Shown: positions 22,187 to 54,342, counted from the first letter of the stretch. The stretch is 64,000 nt of DNA from Frigoribacterium sp. (GCA_025363205.1 JANYEI010000212.1:16854-80853), one strand, 5' to 3'. Notes: generated by a model not told the origin, from the letters alone. Numbers and translations: made by a program.

Positions 22187-23560
22187 GTGTTTGCCAGCAA
22201 TGATGACCCGGTCGTACTCGCAGATCCGTCCGTAATCGCCGGTCTCGACCACTGGCGCACACTGCCGATCAAGCAGCAGCCCCGGTGGCCGGATTCCTCG
22301 TTGGTGCAGGCAGCCTCGGCGGAGATCGCTTCGCTGCCGCCCCTCATCTTTGCCGGTGAGGTCGACGTGTTGCGTGAGCGTCTCGCCGCCGCCGCGCGCG
22401 GCCAAGCCTTCCTGCTGCAGGGCGGCGACTGCGCCGAGACCTTCGCCGGGGCGACCGCCGACGCCATCCGCAATCGCGTCAAAACGGTGCTGCAAATGGC
22501 TGTGGTGCTCACCTACGGTGCCTCCACCCCAGTGATCAAGATGGGCCGGATGGCCGGACAGTTCGCCAAGCCGCGCTCGAGCGACACCGAGACCCGCGGA
22601 GACGTGACCCTTCCGGCGTACCGCGGCGACATCGTCAACGGCTTCGACTTCACGCCGGAGTCGCGCGAGGCAGATCCCCGCCGTCTCGTGCAGGGGTACC
22701 ACACCTCGGCATCCACGATCAATCTCGTTCGCGCTTTCACGCAGGGTGGTTTCGCCGACCTGCGTCAGGTGCACCGGTGGAATCAGGGCTTCGCTCGCAA
22801 TCCGGCGAACGTGCGTTATGAGCAGATGGCCCACGATATCGACAAGGCCATCAAGTTCATGGAGGCGGCCGGCGCCGATTTCGACGAACTCAAGCGCGTG
22901 GAGTTCTACACGAGTCACGAGAGCCTGCTCATGGACTACGAGCGTCCGATGACGCGAATCGACTCGCGTAACGGCACACCGATCAACACCTCGGCACACT
23001 TCCTCTGGATTGGGGAGCGCACCCGCGACCTCGACGGCGCCCATGTGGATTACATGTCTCGCGTGCGCAACCCGATCGGCGTCAAGCTCGGCCCGACGAC
23101 CAAGATCGACGACATGCTTCGGCTCATCGACAAGCTCGATCCGAACCGCGAGCCCGGACGTCTCACCTTCATTACCCGCATGGGTGCTGGCAAGGTTCGG
23201 GACGCTCTTCCGCCGCTTCTTGAAGCGATCAAGCAGGTCGACGCCAACCCGCTGTGGGTCACCGACCCAATGCACGGCAATGGGCTCACCACTCCCAACG
23301 GCTACAAGACGCGGCGGTTCGACGACGTCGTCGACGAGGTCAAGGGCTTCTTCGAGGCGCACCGGGCGGCGGGAACGTACCCGGGCGGCATCCACATCGA
23401 GCTGACCGGTGACGATGTCACGGAGTGCCTCGGCGGCTCAGAGCAAATCGACGAGGCAACCCTCGCGACCCGGTACGAGTCGCTCTGCGACCCGCGGCTG
23501 AACCACATGCAGTCGCTCGAGCTCGCGTTCCTCGTGGCTGAGGAGCTCGGCGCGCGCTGA
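22187..23560 (+). CDS. aroG: Class II 3-deoxy-7-phosphoheptulonate (DAHP) synthase
   Basis: 457 aa. Length and blocks (FLLQGGDCAE, KMGRMAGQFAKPRS, WIGERTR, TDPMHGN) match plant-like class II DAHPS (Rv2178c type). Confidence 0.9.
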   Translation: MFASNDDPVVLADPSVIAGLDHWRTLPIKQQPRWPDSSLVQAASAEIASLPPLIFAGEVDVLRERLAAAARGQAFLLQGGDCAETFAGATADAIRNRVKTVLQMAVVLTYGASTPVIKMGRMAGQFAKPRSSDTETRGDVTLPAYRGDIVNGFDFTPESREADPRRLVQGYHTSASTINLVRAFTQGGFADLRQVHRWNQGFARNPANVRYEQMAHDIDKAIKFMEAAGADFDELKRVEFYTSHESLLMDYERPMTRIDSRNGTPINTSAHFLWIGERTRDLDGAHVDYMSRVRNPIGVKLGPTTKIDDMLRLIDKLDPNREPGRLTFITRMGAGKVRDALPPLLEAIKQVDANPLWVTDPMHGNGLTTPNGYKTRRFDDVVDEVKGFFEAHRAAGTYPGGIHIELTGDDVTECLGGSEQIDEATLATRYESLCDPRLNHMQSLELAFLVAEELGAR

Positions 23561-23586
23561 CCCCGCTGTGCGAAACGGTACCTCGC

Positions 23587-23669
23587 GAAAGCGTCTTCTG
23601 CGAGAGCGTCTGGTAGCCGAGAGCGTCTGGTAGCCGAGCGTGCCTGGTAGCCGAGAGCGCCTCGTTACC
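23587..23669. repeat. Tandem repeat, 17-nt unit GAGAGCGTCTGGTAGCC x about 5
   Basis: Units at 23602-23618 and 23619-23635 are identical. Diverged units at 23636-23652 and 23653-23669, and a degenerate leading unit at 23587-23601. Shares GCGTCTnnTAGCC with the 17-mer at 11487-11554. Confidence 0.85.
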
Positions 23670-23680
23670 GCGAGTAACGG

Positions 23681-23766
23681 GTTCGCGGATCAGGAGCAGC
23701 GGGATGGATAGGGCGTGTCGCGGGCCCACACCGCGGCGTGTCTCGCACAACTCCTGATCCGCGAAC
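23681..23766. repeat. Long inverted-repeat (hairpin) element, copy C (same geometry, different arms)
   Basis: GTTCGCGGATCAGGAG (23681-23696) is the exact reverse complement of CTCCTGATCCGCGAAC (23751-23766). The core is 54 nt. Confidence 0.85.
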
Positions 23767-23891: not shown

Positions 23892-25838
23892 CTAGCCCGA
23901 GAAAACCAGAGTGACCTTGATGTTCGAGCCCTTGTCGGCACTCTGGCCGAACGCCGGATTCGTGGACGCTACTTGGAAGAACGGGGGCAAGGTGTCGGCA
24001 GCGACCTTGTTGTCGTAGGTGAACGTGAAGCCGGCGGCAGTCAGCGCCTTCTTGGCCTTATCCCAGCTCATGCCCACGATATCCGGCACGGCGATCTGCT
24101 CCTTGCCCCTGGAGATCGTCAGCGAGATTGAGCCGCCAGGCCGGATGACCGTACCGTCCGCGACTTCGCCCCCGATCACGTTGCCTGTGGGGACGGTGTC
24201 GCTGAAGTCTTGCCGACCCCGTGTAGCGGTGAGCTGCACGCTATTGAGGGTGCTGGTGGCATCGACGAAACTTTTCCCGGCGACATCCGGAATCGCACCG
24301 GCGGAGACGACGAGTGAAATCGGCTGCTGTTCGCCGTAGGTGGTGGCCTTGACGAGATCGAGGCCACCGGCGCCGGACGCGGCGAGCACGGTGTCTTTCG
24401 CGACCTTCGCGTCGAACTGGCGGGTCGAGTTCTTTGAGTCGTAGGCGAATCGCGCGTCGGTGATCTTCTGGATCGCAGCCTTCTCGGGCTGCCCGACCAG
24501 CACCGGCACCGAGAGCAGTTGAGGCCCGGTGGACAGCAACAGGGTGACCTGGCTGTTCTTGGGCGCGCGGGTGCCGATCTGCGGTGTCGTCTGCACCACC
24601 GCCCCCTTGGGGACCTTCACAGACGGTGCCTGGCCGTACGCGGGATTCACAGTAAACCCGAGCCCGGTGAGCGCCGTCGATGCCGCGGCGGGGGTCTGCC
24701 CGGCGAGATCGGGGATCGCGACCTGCGCCCCTGGTCCGGTGCCGAAGTACCAGCCGGTGCCACCGGCGAGAGCGGCGATGAGGATGACGAGGGCGAACAG
24801 CCAGAATCCCTTGCGTCGCCTCCGGTCGCTCTTCATCGCGAGGGCGTTCGCGGTCTCCGTGAGAATCGGACCGGTGCGATGCCGAGCCTTCGGCGTGAGG
24901 ATCTGGGTATCGCCGGTGCTGGACGGCGAGGCGATCGCGGAGGGCATGATCATCGTGCGCTGGAGGGTGGTGGCCGCGGTGGCCGGCTCATCGAGCCGCA
25001 ACAGCGCTTCCGTCTCGTGAAGCTGGTCGAGCATGGCCTTCGCGTCGCGCGGACGCTGTTCGGGATCCCGGGCTGTGGCCCACAGCACGAGCTCGTCGAG
25101 CTCGGCGGGCACGCGCGGGTTCTTGGTGCTCGGCGTCGGCACGGTGTCGTTGGCGTGCTGGTGAGCGATTTGAAAAGCCTGTTCGCCCTTGAAGGGCTGC
25201 TCGCCGGCCAACATCTCGTAGAGCATGATGCCGACGGCGTAGATGTCGCTTCGCGTGTCGGCGACGCCGCGGGTCACCAGCTCGGGGGAGAGGTATGCAA
25301 TCGTGCCGAGGAGCGCATTTCCCGTGGCCGTGTTCGCGGATGCCGCGCGAGCGAGCCCGAAGTCGCCAATCTTGATCCGCCCATCGTCCGCGAGAAGCAC
25401 GTTCTCCGGTTTGAGGTCGCGGTGCACGATGCCGTTTTTGTGTGCGGCGGCGAGCCCGGCAAGGATGGCCTCCATGATGTCCATCGCCTGCATCGTGGTG
25501 AGCACCTTGTGCTCCATCAGCAGGTCGCGCAGCGTGATGCCCGGCAGGTATTCCATCACCAGGTAGGCGGTCTCGCCATCCTGGCCCTGGTCATACACGT
25601 TCACGACGTTGGGATGCGCGAGCCGCGCCGCCGAGCGCGCCTCCTGGATGAAACGTGCCTTGTATTGCGAATCGTCGGCCAGGTGACCGTGCATGACCTT
25701 GATCGCGACCCGGCGCTCGAGTCGTAGGTCGGTAGCGAGATATACCGTGGCCATGCCGCCGCGCGCAATGCGTGAGCGCACCTGGTAGCGGCCGTCGATG
25801 AGACGTCCGATCAGGGGATCACTGCTGGTGGAGGTCAC
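23892..25838 (-). CDS. Ser/Thr protein kinase with extracellular PASTA repeats (PknB/PknL-type)
   Basis: 648 aa. Hanks kinase motifs (VAIKV, HRDLKPENV, DFGLA), one TM segment (FWLFALVILIAALAGGTGWYF), then about four PASTA-like repeats. Synteny next to aroG matches pknL (Rv2176). Confidence 0.9.
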   Translation of the reverse strand: MTSTSSDPLIGRLIDGRYQVRSRIARGGMATVYLATDLRLERRVAIKVMHGHLADDSQYKARFIQEARSAARLAHPNVVNVYDQGQDGETAYLVMEYLPGITLRDLLMEHKVLTTMQAMDIMEAILAGLAAAHKNGIVHRDLKPENVLLADDGRIKIGDFGLARAASANTATGNALLGTIAYLSPELVTRGVADTRSDIYAVGIMLYEMLAGEQPFKGEQAFQIAHQHANDTVPTPSTKNPRVPAELDELVLWATARDPEQRPRDAKAMLDQLHETEALLRLDEPATAATTLQRTMIMPSAIASPSSTGDTQILTPKARHRTGPILTETANALAMKSDRRRRKGFWLFALVILIAALAGGTGWYFGTGPGAQVAIPDLAGQTPAAASTALTGLGFTVNPAYGQAPSVKVPKGAVVQTTPQIGTRAPKNSQVTLLLSTGPQLLSVPVLVGQPEKAAIQKITDARFAYDSKNSTRQFDAKVAKDTVLAASGAGGLDLVKATTYGEQQPISLVVSAGAIPDVAGKSFVDATSTLNSVQLTATRGRQDFSDTVPTGNVIGGEVADGTVIRPGGSISLTISRGKEQIAVPDIVGMSWDKAKKALTAAGFTFTYDNKVAADTLPPFFQVASTNPAFGQSADKGSNIKVTLVFSG

Positions 25839-29608: not shown

Positions 29609-30040
29609 ATGTTTCTTGGCACCCACACCCCCAAGCTCGACGACAAGGGCCGCGTCATCCTTCCGGCCAAGTTTTGGTCAGAGCTCGAATCCGGCATCGT
29701 GATCACTCGCGGCCAGGAGCGCTGCCTCTACGTGTTTTCCACGCGTGAGTTCGAAGAGATGCATGACCGCATCCGCCAGGCTCCCGTGACGAGCAAGCAG
29801 GCTCGCGACTATCTGCGCCTCTTTCTCTCCGGCGCGAATGCTGAGGTGCCCGACACCCAACACCGGGTTACCATTCCCGCTGCCTTGCGCGCCTATGCCG
29901 GTCTCGGACGGGACCTCACCGTGATCGGCGCCGGTAACCGCGCAGAGATCTGGGATACCACCGCGTGGGAGACCTATTACGCGGAGCAGGAAAGTGCCTT
30001 CGCCGACACCACGGAGGAGGTGATCCCCGGGCTCTTCTAG
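29609..30040 (+). CDS. mraZ: Transcriptional regulator MraZ
   Basis: 143 aa. [22 protein letters not shown] plus a second DxxxR-type repeat ([10 protein letters not shown]). GAGGGGGAG RBS. First gene of the dcw cluster. Confidence 0.93.
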
Positions 30041-30146
30041 TGCCCTTGTTCCTGACTCCCAGCCGTCGACTCGCCCTGACATCACTTCCCCGGTGACAGG
30101 TCGGACGGATGGGGATCAGGAACAAGGAACTGGACCACCGGTCATC

Positions 30147-49342: not shown

Positions 49343-52300
49343 TTGCCTCCAAGCAACGATTCATTCGTGCACCTGCACGTGCACAGCGAATACTCGATGC
49401 TCGATGGCGCCGCCCGGATCGGTCCGCTGATGAAGGCCGCCGCCGAGCAGGAGATGCCGGCGATCGCGATGACCGACCACGGAAACATGTTCGGTGCGTA
49501 CGACTTCTGGAAGCAGGCCACTGCCAACGGGGTGAAACCGATCATCGGCACGGAGGCGTACATCACCCCTGGCACCGCGCGCCAGGATCGCACGCGCGTG
49601 AAGTGGGGCGCGAACCACCAGAACCAGGATGACGTCGGCGGCTCCGGGTCGTACACCCATATGACGCTGCTCTCAGAGAACAACGAGGGCATGCATAACC
49701 TGTTCCGCCTGTCGTCCCTCGCGTCCATCGAGGGCTACTACTTCAAGCCCCGCATGGACCGTGAGCTGTTGAGCCGCTACGGCACAGGCATCATCGCCAC
49801 GACCGGCTGTGTGGGTGGCGAGGTGCAGACCCGCCTGAGGCTCGGCCAGTACGACGAGGCACGAAAGGCCGCAGCGGACTTCCGGGACATCTTCGGCGAG
49901 GGAAATTTCTTCGCCGAGGTCATGGACCATGGCATTGACATCGAGCGCCGAACGATGGAAGACCTGTTCCGCCTCGCCAAAGACCTCAACCTGCCGCTGC
50001 TCGCCACGAACGACCTGCACTACACGCACGCCCACGACTCGACGGCCCATGCGGCGCTGCTCTGCGTGCAATCCGCTTCCACGCTCGATGATCCCAACCG
50101 GTTCAAGTTCGACTCGAACGAGTTCTATCTCAAATCGGCTGCGGAGATGCGCCATCTGTTCCGCGATCACCCCGAGGCCTGTGACAACACCCTGCTGATC
50201 GCCGAGCGTTGCGATGTGTCGTTTGAACACCGCAATCTGATGCCGCGCTTCCCGGTGCCTGAAGGCGAGACGGAGGCCACCTGGTTCGAGAAGGAGGTCA
50301 ACGCAGGCATGCTGCGGCGGTTCCACAATGCGCCGTCAGAGGCGCATCTCGCGCAGGCGAAGTACGAGGTCGACGTGATCAAGCAGATGGGATTCCCCGG
50401 CTACTTCCTCGTCGTCGCGGACTTCATCGCCTGGGCCAAGGCACAGGGTATTCGCGTCGGGCCGGGTCGTGGATCCGCGGCCGGTTCGATGGCCTCCTAT
50501 GCCATGGGCATCACCGAGCTCGATCCCCTTGCGCACGGTCTCATCTTTGAGCGTTTCCTGAATCCCGAGCGCGTGTCGATGCCCGACGTCGACGTCGACT
50601 TCGATGATCGGCGACGCGGCGAGGTCATCCGCTATGTCACCGAAAAGTACGGGGATGACCGGGTTGCCCAGATCGTGACCTACGGCACGATCAAGGCGAA
50701 GCAGGCGCTCAAGGACTCGGCCCGCGTGCTCGGGATGCCCTACTCGGTGGGCGAGAAGCTCACGAAAGCGATGCCGCCGACGATCATGGGCAAGGACATC
50801 ACGCTGAGCGACGTGCTCGACAAGGCCGCTCCGCGTTGGAAGGAGGCCGCTGACTTCCGTGCGGTGCTCGAGACGGATCGGGATGCCGCGACGGTGTTTG
50901 AAACCGCGCGCGGTATCGAGAACCTCAAGCGACAGTGGGGCGTGCACGCCGCTGGCGTGATCCTGTCGGCGGAACCACTCATCGACGTGCTTCCGATCAT
51001 GAAGCGCGAAGACGACGGCGCGATCATCACCCAGTTCGACCAGCCACCGCTTGAGTCTCTCGGCCTCATCAAGATGGACTTCCTCGGACTGCGAAACCTC
51101 ACCGTAATCGAAGATGCGCTGCGGATGATCGAGCGAAACACGGGCGCCACGCTCGTGATCGAAGACCTTGATCTCGACGCCGACCAGAAGACCTACGACC
51201 TGTTGGCGCGTGGAGACACTCTCGGCGTCTTCCAGCTGGATGGTGGACCGATGCGTTCACTTCTCAAGCAGCTCAAGCCGACCAACTTCGAAGACATCTC
51301 CGCCGTCATCGCGCTCTATCGTCCGGGCCCGATGGGTATGAACTCGCACACGAACTATGCCCTGCGCAAGAACGGGCTGCAGACGATCGACGCGATCCAT
51401 CCGGAGCTCGCTGAGCCGTTGCGCGAGAGCCTCGGCATCACCTACGGTCTCATCGTCTACCAGGAGCAGGTGATGTCGGTCGCGCAGAAGGTGGCCGGAT
51501 TCACGCTCGGCCAAGCCGACGTGCTGCGGCGGGCGATGGGCAAGAAGAAGAAGTCGGAGCTCGATAAGCAATACGCCGACTTCGAGGCCGGTATGACCGG
51601 CAACGGCTACAGCGCACAGGCCGTGAAGGTGTTGTGGGACACCCTGATGCCGTTCGCTGACTACGCCTTCAACAAGGCCCACAGCGCCGGCTACGGCGTT
51701 CTGAGCTACTGGACGGCCTATCTCAAGGCCAACCATCCCGCCGAGTACATGGCGGCCCTCCTGACCAGCGTCGGTGACTCCAAGGACAAGCTCGGCATGT
51801 ACCTGAGCGAGTGTCGCCGGATGGGCATCCGGGTGCTTGCCCCGGACGTGAACGAGTCGAGCGGCGACTTCACCGCCGTTCCGAGTGAGGCCGGTATCGG
51901 CGACATCCGCTTCGGTCTTGGTGCGATTCGCAACGTCGGTTCGAACGTTGTCGAGGCGATCGCGAAGTCTCGGGACGAGAAGGGCCGCTTCGAGTCCTTC
52001 CACGACTTTCTTCGCAAGGTGCCGATCCAGGTGGCGAACAAGCGCACGGTCGAGTCGCTCATCAAGTCGGGCGCGTTCGATTCGACAAGGGCCACTCGTC
52101 GGGCATTGCTTGAGATTCACGAGGATGCGATCGACTCGGCCGTGAGCGATAAGCGCGCCGAAGCGAATGGCCAGGTCGGTTTCGACTTCGACAGCCTCTG
52201 GGATGAGCCGCAGGCCGTGAACCAGGTTCCCGACCGCCCGGAGTGGTCGAAGCGTGACAAGCTCGCTTTCGAGCGCGAGATGCTCGGGCTCTATGTGTCC

Positions 52301-52879
52301 GATCATCCGCTCGCCGGACTCGAACTGCAGCTCGCCAAGCATGCCGGCAACAGCATCACCGAGGTGCTTGGTGGCGAGGTCGCCGGCGACGGGGAGCATG
52401 TGACGATCGCCGGCCTTATCACTTCGGTGCAGCACCGCACAGCGCGAAATTCCGGCAACCAGTACGGTCTCATCACCGTTGAGGACTTTGCGGGGGAGAT
52501 CACCGTGATGTTCCTCGGCAAGGCCTACCAGGAGTTTTCGCCCGCCCTCACGAACGACGCGATCGTGGTGGTGCGCGGCCGCGTGAGCATGCGGGATGAC
52601 GGCATGAACCTGCATGCCTCGAGCATGTTCACGCCCGATCTCGGCCAGAGCCTCGGCGCCGGACCGCTCACGATCTCGATGCCGGAGTTCAGGGCGACGA
52701 CGGATGTGGTGACGCAGCTCAATGACGTTCTAATCCGGCACTCGGGCGACACCGAAGTGCGGCTCAAGCTCGTCAAGGGTGAAACCGCCCGCGTGTTCGA
52801 GATTCCGTTCCCGGTCTCGGTCAACGCCGATCTGTACGGCGAACTCAAGTCCCTTCTCGGTCCAAACTGCGTGGTCTGA
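49343..52879 (+). CDS. dnaE: DNA polymerase III alpha subunit
   Basis: Start at TTG 49343 (AAGGGAAG upstream) gives ...SFVHLHVHSEYSMLDG, the PHP domain. The track ORF from 49034 overlaps rluD. 1178 aa. Confidence 0.93.
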   Translation: MPPSNDSFVHLHVHSEYSMLDGAARIGPLMKAAAEQEMPAIAMTDHGNMFGAYDFWKQATANGVKPIIGTEAYITPGTARQDRTRVKWGANHQNQDDVGGSGSYTHMTLLSENNEGMHNLFRLSSLASIEGYYFKPRMDRELLSRYGTGIIATTGCVGGEVQTRLRLGQYDEARKAAADFRDIFGEGNFFAEVMDHGIDIERRTMEDLFRLAKDLNLPLLATNDLHYTHAHDSTAHAALLCVQSASTLDDPNRFKFDSNEFYLKSAAEMRHLFRDHPEACDNTLLIAERCDVSFEHRNLMPRFPVPEGETEATWFEKEVNAGMLRRFHNAPSEAHLAQAKYEVDVIKQMGFPGYFLVVADFIAWAKAQGIRVGPGRGSAAGSMASYAMGITELDPLAHGLIFERFLNPERVSMPDVDVDFDDRRRGEVIRYVTEKYGDDRVAQIVTYGTIKAKQALKDSARVLGMPYSVGEKLTKAMPPTIMGKDITLSDVLDKAAPRWKEAADFRAVLETDRDAATVFETARGIENLKRQWGVHAAGVILSAEPLIDVLPIMKREDDGAIITQFDQPPLESLGLIKMDFLGLRNLTVIEDALRMIERNTGATLVIEDLDLDADQKTYDLLARGDTLGVFQLDGGPMRSLLKQLKPTNFEDISAVIALYRPGPMGMNSHTNYALRKNGLQTIDAIHPELAEPLRESLGITYGLIVYQEQVMSVAQKVAGFTLGQADVLRRAMGKKKKSELDKQYADFEAGMTGNGYSAQAVKVLWDTLMPFADYAFNKAHSAGYGVLSYWTAYLKANHPAEYMAALLTSVGDSKDKLGMYLSECRRMGIRVLAPDVNESSGDFTAVPSEAGIGDIRFGLGAIRNVGSNVVEAIAKSRDEKGRFESFHDFLRKVPIQVANKRTVESLIKSGAFDSTRATRRALLEIHEDAIDSAVSDKRAEANGQVGFDFDSLWDEPQAVNQVPDRPEWSKRDKLAFEREMLGLYVSDHPLAGLELQLAKHAGNSITEVLGGEVAGDGEHVTIAGLITSVQHRTARNSGNQYGLITVEDFAGEITVMFLGKAYQEFSPALTNDAIVVVRGRVSMRDDGMNLHASSMFTPDLGQSLGAGPLTISMPEFRATTDVVTQLNDVLIRHSGDTEVRLKLVKGETARVFEIPFPVSVNADLYGELKSLLGPNCVV

Positions 52880-52941
52880 GCGTCAGCTTCGTTGCGTACG
52901 GGTCGACGTGCGTCAGGGGCCCGCTTGATCGACACAGAGAT

Positions 52942-52983
52942 GCTGAGACACTGAGACGCTGAGCCGCTGAGACGCTGAGCGTC
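52942..52983. repeat. Tandem repeat, 7-9-nt unit GCTGAGAC x5
   Basis: GCTGAGACA CTGAGAC GCTGAGCC GCTGAGAC GCTGAGC GTC. The terminal CTGAGCGTC (52975-52983) repeats the dnaE stop context CTGAGCGTC (52876-52884). Confidence 0.85.
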
Positions 52984-53255
52984 GGCGCGCGATTTGCGCG
53001 GATTACGGACATGTTGGCGGTGCCTGCCATACCTGCGATTGGTGCCGGAGCCGAGAGGGTAACCGTGACGGCCCTGACGGCTGCGAGCGAGATGACGCGG
53101 GTTGCGAGAGTGTCTTCGTAGGCAGGGAGTTCCCCCGTGGCTCGGAGTGGAATCATCCCGGTCCCAGCACGAGCCCGGACGGAGTATCGGATGCCCGCTT
53201 GGATGTCCCGGCGCTGTCATGTTCCGGTGGGGTGCAGTTCCCTCTGCGGCTGATT

Positions 53256-53341
53256 TCCGTGTGCGGTGTCGATCCTCCCGCGGCTCTAATCCATGTGTGG
53301 CGTCGATTCGTATGCGGCGCTCACTCGTGCGCGGCGTCGTT
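53256..53341. repeat. Degenerate tandem repeat, 17-18-nt unit TCGTGTGCGGCGTCGAT x4
   Basis: Units at 53256-53273, 53290-53307, 53308-53324 and 53325-53341. The next unit (TCGTGTGCGAAATGCAGGA) forms the left arm of hairpin copy B. Confidence 0.7.
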
Positions 53342-53345
53342 TCGT

Positions 53346-53430
53346 GTGCGAAATGCAGGAAGCAGTGTGACTGGAGTGACGGATGGGGCACACCAACCAC
53401 ATCCGTCACGCATCGTCCTGCATTTCGAAC
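53346..53430. repeat. Long inverted-repeat (hairpin) element, copy B
   Basis: CGAAATGCAGGA (53349-53360) pairs with TCCTGCATTTCG (53416-53427), plus GT/AC beyond one mismatch. 55-nt core with nested GTGACGGATG/CATCCGTCAC. Ungapped core identity to copy A is 38/55 by my manual alignment. Confidence 0.9.
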
Positions 53431-53440
53431 CGGCGGGGCG

Positions 53441-53623
53441 GCCGAGCCAAGCGGATGCCGAGCCGAGTGGATGCCGAGCCGAGCCGAGCGGATGCCGAGC
53501 CGAGTGGATGCCGGGCGTGCCGGGATGCGGGAGCCGAGCGGACGCGGGAGCCGAGCGGATGCGGATGTCGATCGGATGCCGGGCGTGCCGGGACGCGGAT
53601 GCCGGAGCCGAGCGGATGCGGAT
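53441..53623. repeat. Tandem repeat, 16-23-nt unit GCCGAGCCGAG(Y)GGAT x about 11
   Basis: Unit boundaries (each ending GGAT or GGAC) at 53456, 53472, 53493, 53509, 53526, 53543, 53560, 53577, 53594, 53617 and 53623. Decays into CCGACCC heptamers up to 53683. Confidence 0.85.
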
Positions 53624-53688
53624 GCCGAACCGACCCGACCCAGCGGCCCGACCTAGCCGATCCGACCCGACCGACCGGCCGACGTCAG

Positions 53689-54207
53689 CTATACGGCGTC
53701 GCCCGGCTTCAGGTAGGTGCGCTCGTGGTAGAGGAGGGCGGCATCCGGCTCACCGAGTGCTCCCTCTTCAATCTGCACCACGATGACGGCATTGTTTGCC
53801 ACCGGGAAGCGCTCGACGATGCGCCCAACCATCCACGAAGTGACCCCCTCGAGAATCGGCAGGCCATGCGGGCCAGGCGCCCAGTGGTCGCCTGTGAAGC
53901 GCAGGTCGTGATCGCCGGACATCCGTTCGGCGAGGTGACGCGTGCGCGCGCCCATGGTCTGGATGGCCACCCAGTCGGTGCCGGCGATGGCCGGCCAGGC
54001 GCTGGCGACCTTCGCCATGTTGAAGGTCGCGAGGGGAGGAACCGCAGCAAGCGAGGCGAGGGATGTCGCGGTGAACCCGACCGGCTTCCCTTCCGGGGTC
54101 AACGCGGTGATCACCACCACTCCGGCGGCGTGCCGACGAAAGGCGTGCTTGAAAGCCGCGATGCCGTCCGGTTCTCCTGCAGCGGTCACGGGTGCTGTCT
54201 CATCCAC
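53689..54207 (-). CDS. Flavin reductase family protein (NAD(P)H-FMN oxidoreductase, RutF/HpaC-like)
   Basis: 172 aa. FKHAFRRHAAGVVVITA...PVGFTATSLASLAAVPPLATFNM matches the Flavin_Reduct fold pattern. Confidence 0.8.
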   Translation of the reverse strand: MDETAPVTAAGEPDGIAAFKHAFRRHAAGVVVITALTPEGKPVGFTATSLASLAAVPPLATFNMAKVASAWPAIAGTDWVAIQTMGARTRHLAERMSGDHDLRFTGDHWAPGPHGLPILEGVTSWMVGRIVERFPVANNAVIVVQIEEGALGEPDAALLYHERTYLKPGDAV

Positions 54208-54342
54208 CGGTATGTCAATTCCCTGTCAACTGCGATTATTTCTCTGGCGTGCGAGCGAGCCTCTGGCGTGCGAGCGGGCCTCTAGCGTGGCCAGCGGTCT
54301 CTCGCTCAGCACACAGAGTGGCTCCCCTAGGCTTAGCCCGCC

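Follow-up and report, generated by a model that had tools for sequence, protein, structure and literature searches.

A palindromic element in the spacer downstream of dnaE, here called copy B, genuinely belongs, as a maintained element, to a family of palindromic repeats that had not been described before and is scattered through the Microbacteriaceae. We consider it rather probable that this family is a REPIN-like set of dispersed extragenic repeats whose arms are recognised by an AbiEi-DUF559 nuclease, the gene for which is bracketed by two copies of the repeat. The link between repeat and nuclease is associative, one of position, and from it we infer how the arms might be recognised, how their complementarity might be kept up and by what route copies might disperse. 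It is this family-level link to a DUF559 nuclease that makes the result interesting.

Copy B and its relatives in the window

The window is the whole 64,000-nt stretch of DNA that was analysed, and copy B lies in it 467 nt past the stop of dnaE and 259 nt past the stop of a flavin reductase gene on the opposite strand (Table 1). Homologues of this flavin reductase place the host in the Microbacteriaceae, near Glaciihabitans and Lacisediminihabitans. What the preliminary description had observed of copy B held throughout when it was recomputed: the left arm is identical to that of copy A, the right arm (GTTCGAAATGCAGGA when read on the minus strand) departs from it by a single mismatch, and the core is exactly 55 nt long and equals that of copy A at 38 of 55 ungapped positions, the same count as before, compared to 14.5 +/- 3.3 (maximum 27) in 5000 composition-matched shuffles. 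The element does sit between convergent genes, and the G-rich array placed about 10 nt after the right arm was found to start at 53441-53444, or 11-14 nt beyond it. The 15-mer arm has 4 matches in the window against 0.14 expected. Folded as RNA, copy B reached -41 kcal/mol (plus-strand z -5.4, minus-strand z -4.9), and folded as DNA it reached -28.5 kcal/mol (z -7.3; other strand z -5.4).

Searches of the dnaE spacer gave neither a canonical terminator nor a promoter, with no terminator-like sites from 52800 to 53760, and no U-tract follows the stem of copy B. The element matched no Rfam 15 family at the gathering threshold or at E values up to 10. Rfam did identify an mraW RNA (RF01746, 59.8 bits) elsewhere in the window, upstream of a cell-division gene cluster; GACGGATGGGG is common to a stem of this RNA and the copy B core, probably by chance.

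Covariance model R1 matched copies A, B and C in the window and nothing else, and all three lie in spacers between convergent genes. Copy C is a probable divergent member that was left out of the training of R1. Its arms, GTTCGCGGATCAGGAG and CTCCTGATCCGCGAAC, were delimited by inverted-repeat search with a geometry of 16 + 54 + 16 nt; they keep the outer GTTCG and the inner CAGGAG of the family arm, with five middle positions altered on both arms. No other copies with the arms of copy C were present in any of the collected loci. Tandem repeats with periods of 8-57 nt, often 17 nt, fill the unusually long intergenic spacers of the source genome. One such array with a 17-nt period precedes copy C, and those around copy A are C-rich upstream and G-rich downstream.

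The nested 10-bp stem described for copy B is present, formed by GTGACGGATG (53376-53385) and CATCCGTCAC (53400-53409), but it had been taken as common to copies A and B, and the pairing partners differ between the two. Its conservation held in part. In 26 sequences of the window's own sub-lineage the stem was 79% paired, with double changes in 6 of 10 pairs and a score above all shuffles, while family-wide the cores folded at the level of shuffled sequence (median z -0.5), which rules out a structured core as a property of the family. An alternative pairing with a second GTCAC was about as good, and RNAalifold predicted only the outer stem for the sub-lineage. The nested stem is thus limited to the sub-lineage of the window.

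Table 1. Locations of the repeat, its neighbours and associated features in the window and in collected loci (L numbers).
Feature	Location	Strand	Remarks
Copy B, whole palindromic repeat, 85 nt	53346..53430	.	covariance model R1 57.6 bits, E 5e-15
Copy B left arm GTGCGAAATGCAGGA	53346..53360	+	same as copy A left arm (11771-11785)
Copy B core (spacer), 55 nt	53361..53415	.	includes sub-lineage-specific nested stem 53376-53385 / 53400-53409
Copy B right arm TCCTGCATTTCGAAC	53416..53430	+	14/15 positions complementary to left arm
dnaE, flanking gene outside element	49367..52879	+	convergent neighbour of copy B
Flavin reductase gene (PF01613), flanking	53689..54207	-	stop at 53689; convergent with dnaE
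Weaker tandem repeat, period 17/34 nt	53280..53350	.	extends into copy B left arm
G-rich tandem array, period ~17 nt, unit ~GAGCCGAGCGGATGCGG	53441..53628	.	CGGATG-rich; adjoins right arm
Copy A	11771..11855	.	R1 61.7 bits; stem reaches 11768-11858
Convergent genes around copy A	10940-11503; 12021-12776	+; -	
Copy C, probable divergent member	23681..23766	.	R1 23.3 bits, E 9e-5
Convergent genes around copy C	22187-23560; 23892-25838	+; -	
Tandem array preceding copy C	23586-23659		period 17 nt
Tandem-repeat spacers in the window	11486-11687, 11860-11904, 23586-23659, 52931-52979, 53280-53628, 54242-54302		
mraW RNA (RF01746)	30037-30138	+	
Hydrophobic ORF in dnaE spacer of a relative	L128:10729-11094		121 residues
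Tandem-multiplied arms	L145:1859-2080, L150:798-911, L180:5889-6060, L185:1069-1230, L189:2611-2700, L196:627-840, L235:773-930		
Flanking elements, Cryobacterium mesophilum	L252:9800-9930, L252:10875-11005		direct repeats
TTGTCCACAGA-like motif	L252:9935-9960, L255:9935-9950, L263:9940-9955, L264:6735-6750, L265:5462-5475		between upstream element and nuclease gene start
TCCACAG, Herbiconiux paralogue	L266:9920-9965		upstream of gene
GGAGCGCTCC sites	L255:9847-9875, L255:10955-10983; L265:5382-5392, L265:6447-6460		in core beside arm
Herbiconiux palindrome	L266:10869-10939, L266:3196-3264		first overlaps paralogue stop; second 7 kb away

A dispersed family with conserved arms and free cores

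Metagenome contigs were scanned for pairs of the 11-nt arms lying 48-62 nt apart, which gave at least 120 loci and more than 130 distinct copies after duplicates were removed, with at least 14 copies on one 3.37-Mb contig (Ga0209960_1000001). The arm core motif of the family is approximately GAAATGCAGGAG, with arms of 15-16 bp in an element of 85-90 bp. Among the matches listed, 140 of 147 had gaps of 55, 56 or 57 nt (32, 54 and 54 copies, respectively) and 7 were outliers. A search of genome contigs with a single 15-nt arm returned mostly chance matches among those listed, and at least three real elements, located in Glaciihabitans sp. GrIS 2.15 (L107) and in loci L103 and L018. No viral contigs matched the element and plasmids gave chance matches only, and we rejected a phage or plasmid origin. 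Literature on the arm sequence, on Microbacteriaceae repeats and on DUF559 yielded no description of this repeat.

In this family the arms are conserved and the cores are saturated with changes. Cores are unlike one another even inside one genome and essentially unalignable between lineages, and orienting them by expectation-maximisation gave no conserved motif (~20 bits vs ~10 in shuffles). The variable outer arm positions, 4 or 5 bases beyond the fixed 11-mer, are specific to each genome or sample and remain complementary. In the family arm alignment, pair 6/87 was CG in 60 sequences, AU in 39 and other in 2, and pair 3/90 was GC in 37, UA in 27 and CG in 13, giving an arm covariation score of 0.245 compared to 0.092 in shuffles, with none of 500 shuffles exceeding it. 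Compensated variants with both arms changed also occur inside the fixed motif, namely CAAATGAAGGAG in Parafrigoribacterium humi, CAAGTGCAGGAG in locus L265 and GAAACGCAGGAG in the Glaciihabitans element. Counts of G-U and A-C mismatches were balanced, showing that no transcribed strand is favoured. The preliminary description had suggested a maintained element rather than a recent, decaying duplication, and this is borne out by the recurrence of the arms and the 55-57 nt spacing in more than 130 distinct copies belonging to many lineages of the Microbacteriaceae and by arm pairing that covaries while the cores reach the divergence of shuffled sequence.

The hexamer CGGATG/CATCCG was present in 47 of 131 cores compared to 4.5 expected, a ten-fold excess, and its density was 6.1 per kb in elements vs 1.6-1.9 per kb elsewhere. 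The array that follows copy B contains it 8-10 times. This hexamer may have been left over from an ancestral core common to the copies, or it may serve as a second motif for recognition.

Of 116 elements, 42 (36%) had a tandem array no more than 60 nt away, compared to 25 of 209 other spacers (12%; OR 4.2, p 6e-7). Solitary arms proved to be local tandem copies beside paired elements. At several loci the arms have themselves been multiplied in tandem with periods of ~26-43 nt, often symmetrically about a paired element so that nested palindromes result, and in one of these (L150) the arm holds a microsatellite-like GAATGCA repeat.

Genes around the copies were placed with a codon-likelihood caller, which replaced a GC3-based caller whose strong 3'-end bias proved unreliable. 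Out of 68 copies that fell cleanly between two genes, 23 were in convergent, 25 in tandem and 20 in divergent spacers, compared to 125, 376 and 170 among 671 background spacers. Convergent spacers were therefore enriched for the element (23/68 vs 125/671, OR 2.2, p 0.006), and many further copies lay directly upstream of a start codon. A crude gene caller scored 14 of 131 copies within open reading frames. The 79 neighbouring genes whose starts face an element fell into 57 heterogeneous Pfam families with one recurrent member, DUF559/MTES_1575. The element is not confined to the 3' ends of genes.

Conservation of the element in orthologous dnaE spacers held at close range and not beyond. Relatives whose flavin reductase is 96-98% identical to that of the window (L121-L126) have a dnaE spacer of ~1.07-1.10 kb with two copies, both preceded by CGGCATCCG-rich arrays. 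At 89% identity (L128-L131) the spacer is 604 nt long, holds a small ORF and has no copies, and in P. humi, at 76% identity, it is 22 nt long and has none. In the 89% relatives the repeat-filled spacer is replaced by an ORF for 121 hydrophobic residues with no Pfam match. The presence of two copies in close relatives and none in distant ones makes copy B a lineage-specific gain. Its site was gained recently and then underwent local duplication or loss, and is not an ancient orthologous site. At dnaE, copy B is probably a tolerated passenger of a convergent spacer with no locus-specific role, and any terminator effect there would be secondary.

A nuclease gene with the repeat on both sides

The one recurrent neighbour encodes a protein of ~288 residues for which an AlphaFold2 model was obtained with a mean pLDDT of 93.8. 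In this model, residues 1 to ~195 resemble the whole AbiEi antitoxin (6y8q, E 9e-6), and the C-terminal ~100 residues match the catalytic domain of I-Bth0305I (3r3p, target-normalised TM-score 0.79) as well as the DUF559 protein NGO0050 (3hrl) and Vsr (1cw0). Sequence searches agreed with the structure: Pfam assigned AbiEi_4 and DUF559/MTES_1575 domains, the PADLOC HEase profile matched the nuclease domain (E 7e-5), and PADLOC and PDB searches were consistent with the model. As modeled, the product of the gene thus joins an AbiEi-type winged-helix module to a nuclease of the DUF559/Vsr type. All 44 sequences compared keep the catalytic E, D and H residues of the nuclease motif unchanged, and the gene has a Ka/Ks of 0.12-0.27. 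At 50% identity the protein family comprises 327 clusters at E <= 1e-30 and 7841 clusters at E <= 0.001. AbiEi proteins bind inverted repeats (PMC7319586), and Vsr, DUF559 proteins and I-Bth0305I form a single clade of PD-(D/E)XK nucleases (PMC3424549).

By tblastn, the gene was present in 10 of ~120 listed metagenome loci, and all 10 had elements next to it, 30-80 nt from the gene ends and on both sides wherever the contig reaches. As 10 of the 17 gene loci were found via the element, only the other seven are an unbiased sample. These seven genomes were picked by protein similarity without use of the element: Cryobacterium mesophilum, P. humi, MAGs of Rhodoglobus, Lacisediminihabitans and another Microbacteriaceae, and two metagenome contigs. 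Each of the seven has an element on either side of the gene, and in each the gene lies between dapD and citrate synthase, a syntenic site that spans at least four named genera. Altogether, the element was on both sides in 15 of 15 gene loci that could be read on both sides. We considered a mobile element-gene-element cassette and rejected it because the gene is syntenic in all seven genomes. The 64-kb window does not contain the AbiEi-DUF559 gene.

Arm variants of the gene-flanking elements differ between genomes and agree among the arms of one locus. P. humi has CCCAAATGAAGGAG, and two other gene loci, with cores of 67-69 nt, have CCAAATGCAGGA. In locus L264 a third, dispersed copy shares its arm variant with the two gene-flanking copies. 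Flanking and dispersed variants also agree in the Ga0193699 and Ga0209344 contig groups, an agreement that shared ancestry could explain as well. Between orthologous gene-flanking elements, arm identity was 0.87-0.98 (0.87 in the unbiased set) and core identity was 0.57-0.65 (unbiased 0.57) where shuffles scored 0.56 +/- 0.05. Within a pair of flanking elements, the orientation of one core to the other follows no consistent rule. In four genomes, the 20 kb surrounding the gene contained no copies beyond the two flanking ones, suggesting that some lineages may have no dispersed population.

Several further features were observed at the gene loci. In C. mesophilum the two flanking elements are direct repeats that are ~97% identical including ~35 nt of left flank, which suggests recent gene conversion between the two sides; in the other genomes the cores of the two elements are unrelated. 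A conserved TTGTCCACAGA-like motif, located in the interval from the upstream element to the gene start, may be a promoter or autoregulatory site, and TCCACAG also occurs upstream of a Herbiconiux paralogue. In P. humi and the Lacisediminihabitans MAG the core beside the arm holds a perfect 10-bp palindrome, GGAGCGCTCC. With it, the inverted repeat at the outer ends of the element-gene-element unit reaches 29 bp in P. humi.

Paralogues of the gene exist, with several per genome in Herbiconiux; AbiEi-DUF559 paralogues amount to 1887 clusters at 50% identity with E <= 1e-10. The one Herbiconiux paralogue inspected (L266, GCA_001571005) is accompanied on one side of the gene only by a different palindrome of ~70 nt, CGAAYGGGCTG ... 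ATACGTGCA ... TGCACGCAT ... CAGCCCRTTCG, which recurs at a second site. This hints that paralogues may have repeat families of their own.

In the explanation that we favour, the AbiEi-DUF559 protein would recognise the arms in duplex form or once they are extruded as a hairpin stem. Nicking by the nuclease followed by repair would keep both arms complementary and would occasionally copy the element into new intergenic sites, and the adjoining tandem arrays would be by-products of the same repair. What makes the family REPIN-like is that it is multi-copy, with genome-specific arm variants, lineage-specific gains, local duplications and one vertically inherited gene that it brackets. PD-(D/E)XK nucleases hydrolyse DNA and carry out no strand transfer, so transposition to new sites is left unexplained by the nuclease alone. 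Also counting against this explanation are the paralogues of the gene, the different palindrome beside one of them, the four genomes with just two copies near the gene and the window's lack of the gene. Nor was there an excess of direct repeats of 2-9 bp at any of 12 offsets, as target-site duplications would give.

A more ambitious version, which we hold tentatively and would not yet bet on, is that a partnership of the REPIN-RAYT type was invented a second time, independently, in the Microbacteriaceae. In it, a chromosomal AbiEi-DUF559 nuclease would bind the GAAATGCAGGAG arms of the ~85-bp hairpin repeats and Vsr-like nicking would maintain the repeats. Under this version, a Vsr-like activity would nick mismatched or hairpin-form arms and thereby bring about their concerted, compensated evolution, and the repair of breaks would from time to time give rise to new copies and tandem arrays. 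If a similar system has arisen in actinobacteria around an unrelated nuclease fold, the REPIN-like way of life evolved more than once. If true, each of the related paralogues elsewhere in the actinobacteria could look after a palindrome family of its own, and the large, uncharacterised DUF559 family would be a class of repeat-keeping nucleases. It would also give the large group of DUF559, endonuclease domain-containing and AbiEi-domain proteins a first testable function and explain why intergenic spacers in these genomes are unusually long and full of repeats. In practice, the repeats break assemblies, with many nuclease genes stranded on 1-3 kb contigs, and they could be used as typing markers.

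Alternative readings and known systems

The element could act at the RNA level, as a bidirectional intrinsic terminator without a U-tract or as an mRNA 3'-stabilising hairpin that serves both convergent transcripts, and could have spread solely because long hairpins are useful between convergent genes. The convergent setting of copies A, B and C, the family-wide enrichment in convergent spacers, the very stable folds on both strands, the dnaE spacer without a canonical terminator and the maintained complementarity of the arms are all consistent with such a role. However, divergent spacers hold 20 of the 68 copies, many others immediately precede a start codon, the stem has no U-tract after it, the balanced mismatches point to no favoured transcribed strand, and core structure is no better than chance. 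A terminator requires a stem, not a 12-nt sequence shared across genera or a loop fixed at 55-57 nt, and an RNA-level role leaves the bracketing of the nuclease gene unaccounted for, so we regard it as unlikely. Its narrowest form, a terminator and nothing else, is ruled out by the many copies that the codon-likelihood caller placed in divergent spacers. The compensated changes on both arms, the arrays beside 36% of elements vs 12% of other spacers, and the symmetric tandem multiplication of arms in L145, L180, L185, L189, L196 and L235 would also be expected of quasi-palindromes that maintain themselves with no dedicated protein, with template switching keeping the arms, slippage making the arrays and the gene merely occupying a hotspot. 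Template switching keeps complementarity but not one particular sequence, whereas the same 11-12 nt motif and its spacing persist across genera while the cores randomise, and the element on each side of the gene in every fully readable locus is not accounted for. We give self-maintaining quasi-palindromes a small chance of being the whole explanation.

Two further readings fared less well. If the arms were half-sites of a transcription factor acting on duplex DNA with looping, the copies would define a regulon, and the conserved, sequence-specific inverted half-sites at a fixed distance, the copies in divergent promoter regions and the AbiEi-like DNA-binding protein encoded between two copies would fit. 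Yet the start-facing neighbours are functionally mixed (57 Pfam families in 79 genes), with none recurrent except at the nuclease gene locus, and many copies lie between convergent stop codons, where there is no promoter. In addition, single copies have compensated changes on both arms, as expected if the arms pair with each other, and a set of operators is in our opinion very improbable. A conventional MITE, meaning an IS deletion derivative moved by a classical transposase acting on terminal inverted repeats, would likewise be small, multi-copy and lineage-specific in its presence, with terminal inverted repeats like the 15-16 bp arms seen here. It would be expected to leave target-site duplications, but there were none of 2-9 bp at any offset, and ~1 Mb of loci held no longer element or parent IS with the same arms, the solitary arms being tandem copies. 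The sole recurrent neighbour is a non-transposase gene at a fixed syntenic site, the element is absent from viral contigs and has only chance matches in plasmids, and the cores within one genome are unrelated, unlike those of a recent MITE burst. This makes a MITE the least probable of the identities weighed.

Correia/NEMIS, ERIC and other MITE-like repeats of enterobacteria and Neisseria resemble the family described here in their short length, intergenic location, terminal inverted repeats and capacity to form hairpins once transcribed. Repeats of the Correia/NEMIS and ERIC type have conserved interiors, and Correia elements have TA target duplications, whereas here the interior is free, no duplication was seen and there is a dedicated, flanked gene. 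Integron attC sites are marked by GTTRRRY boxes and extrahelical bases; the arms have neither, and on these features this identity was set aside.

The nuclease can be compared with two known systems, one for each half of the protein. With I-Bth0305I and the Vsr/DUF559 clade (3r3p, 3hrl, 1cw0; PMC3424549) it shares the C-terminal fold and the conserved acidic and histidine residues. It differs from a homing endonuclease of the EDxHD/Vsr type such as I-Bth0305I in that the gene is outside any intron or intein, is syntenic across genera and not mobile, and carries an N-terminal AbiEi-type DNA-binding module. With AbiEi, the antitoxin of the type IV AbiE toxin-antitoxin system (6y8q; PMC7319586), it shares a two-domain N-terminal module with a winged helix. 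Here, in contrast to AbiE, a nuclease domain is fused to this module and no AbiEii (DUF1814) toxin gene is adjacent, the neighbours being the genes for THDPS (dapD) and citrate synthase in all seven genomes.

The closest resemblance at the level of the whole family is to REPIN-RAYT systems, which are known with HUH transposases in proteobacteria. These consist of hairpin-forming REP doublets and REP-associated tyrosine transposases (Bertels and Rainey, PMC3116915, PMC3337134; bioRxiv 10.1101/2021.07.10.451892). Both kinds of element are extragenic, ~90 bp long and capable of forming hairpins, with two conserved inverted sequences around a less conserved spacer of preferred length, no two spacers being alike. 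Both are multi-copy in a genome (here 3 in 64 kb and at least 14 on the 3.37-Mb contig), the genome-specific repeat type of REPIN-RAYT may have a counterpart here in the outer arm bases, both are absent from plasmid and phage collections, and both accompany a vertically inherited nuclease gene that is flanked by the element at a fixed extragenic site. The differences lie mainly in the partner and the arm. Instead of an HUH/Y1 transposase, the partner here is predicted to be an AbiEi-like winged helix joined to a DUF559/Vsr-type PD-(D/E)XK nuclease. A REP unit is itself imperfectly palindromic and bears a GTAG or CGTC tag, whereas TGCA is the longest palindrome inside the arm GTKCGAAATGCAGGAG, which has no such tag. 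The hosts are Actinomycetota rather than Proteobacteria, copy numbers are in the tens so far rather than the hundreds, and the gene has paralogues in related genera. Since the HUH/Y1 transposase and the REP sub-structure are both missing, we do not file the family as a member of REPIN-RAYT; we propose instead that it works like REPIN-RAYT, with the AbiEi-DUF559 nuclease as its partner.
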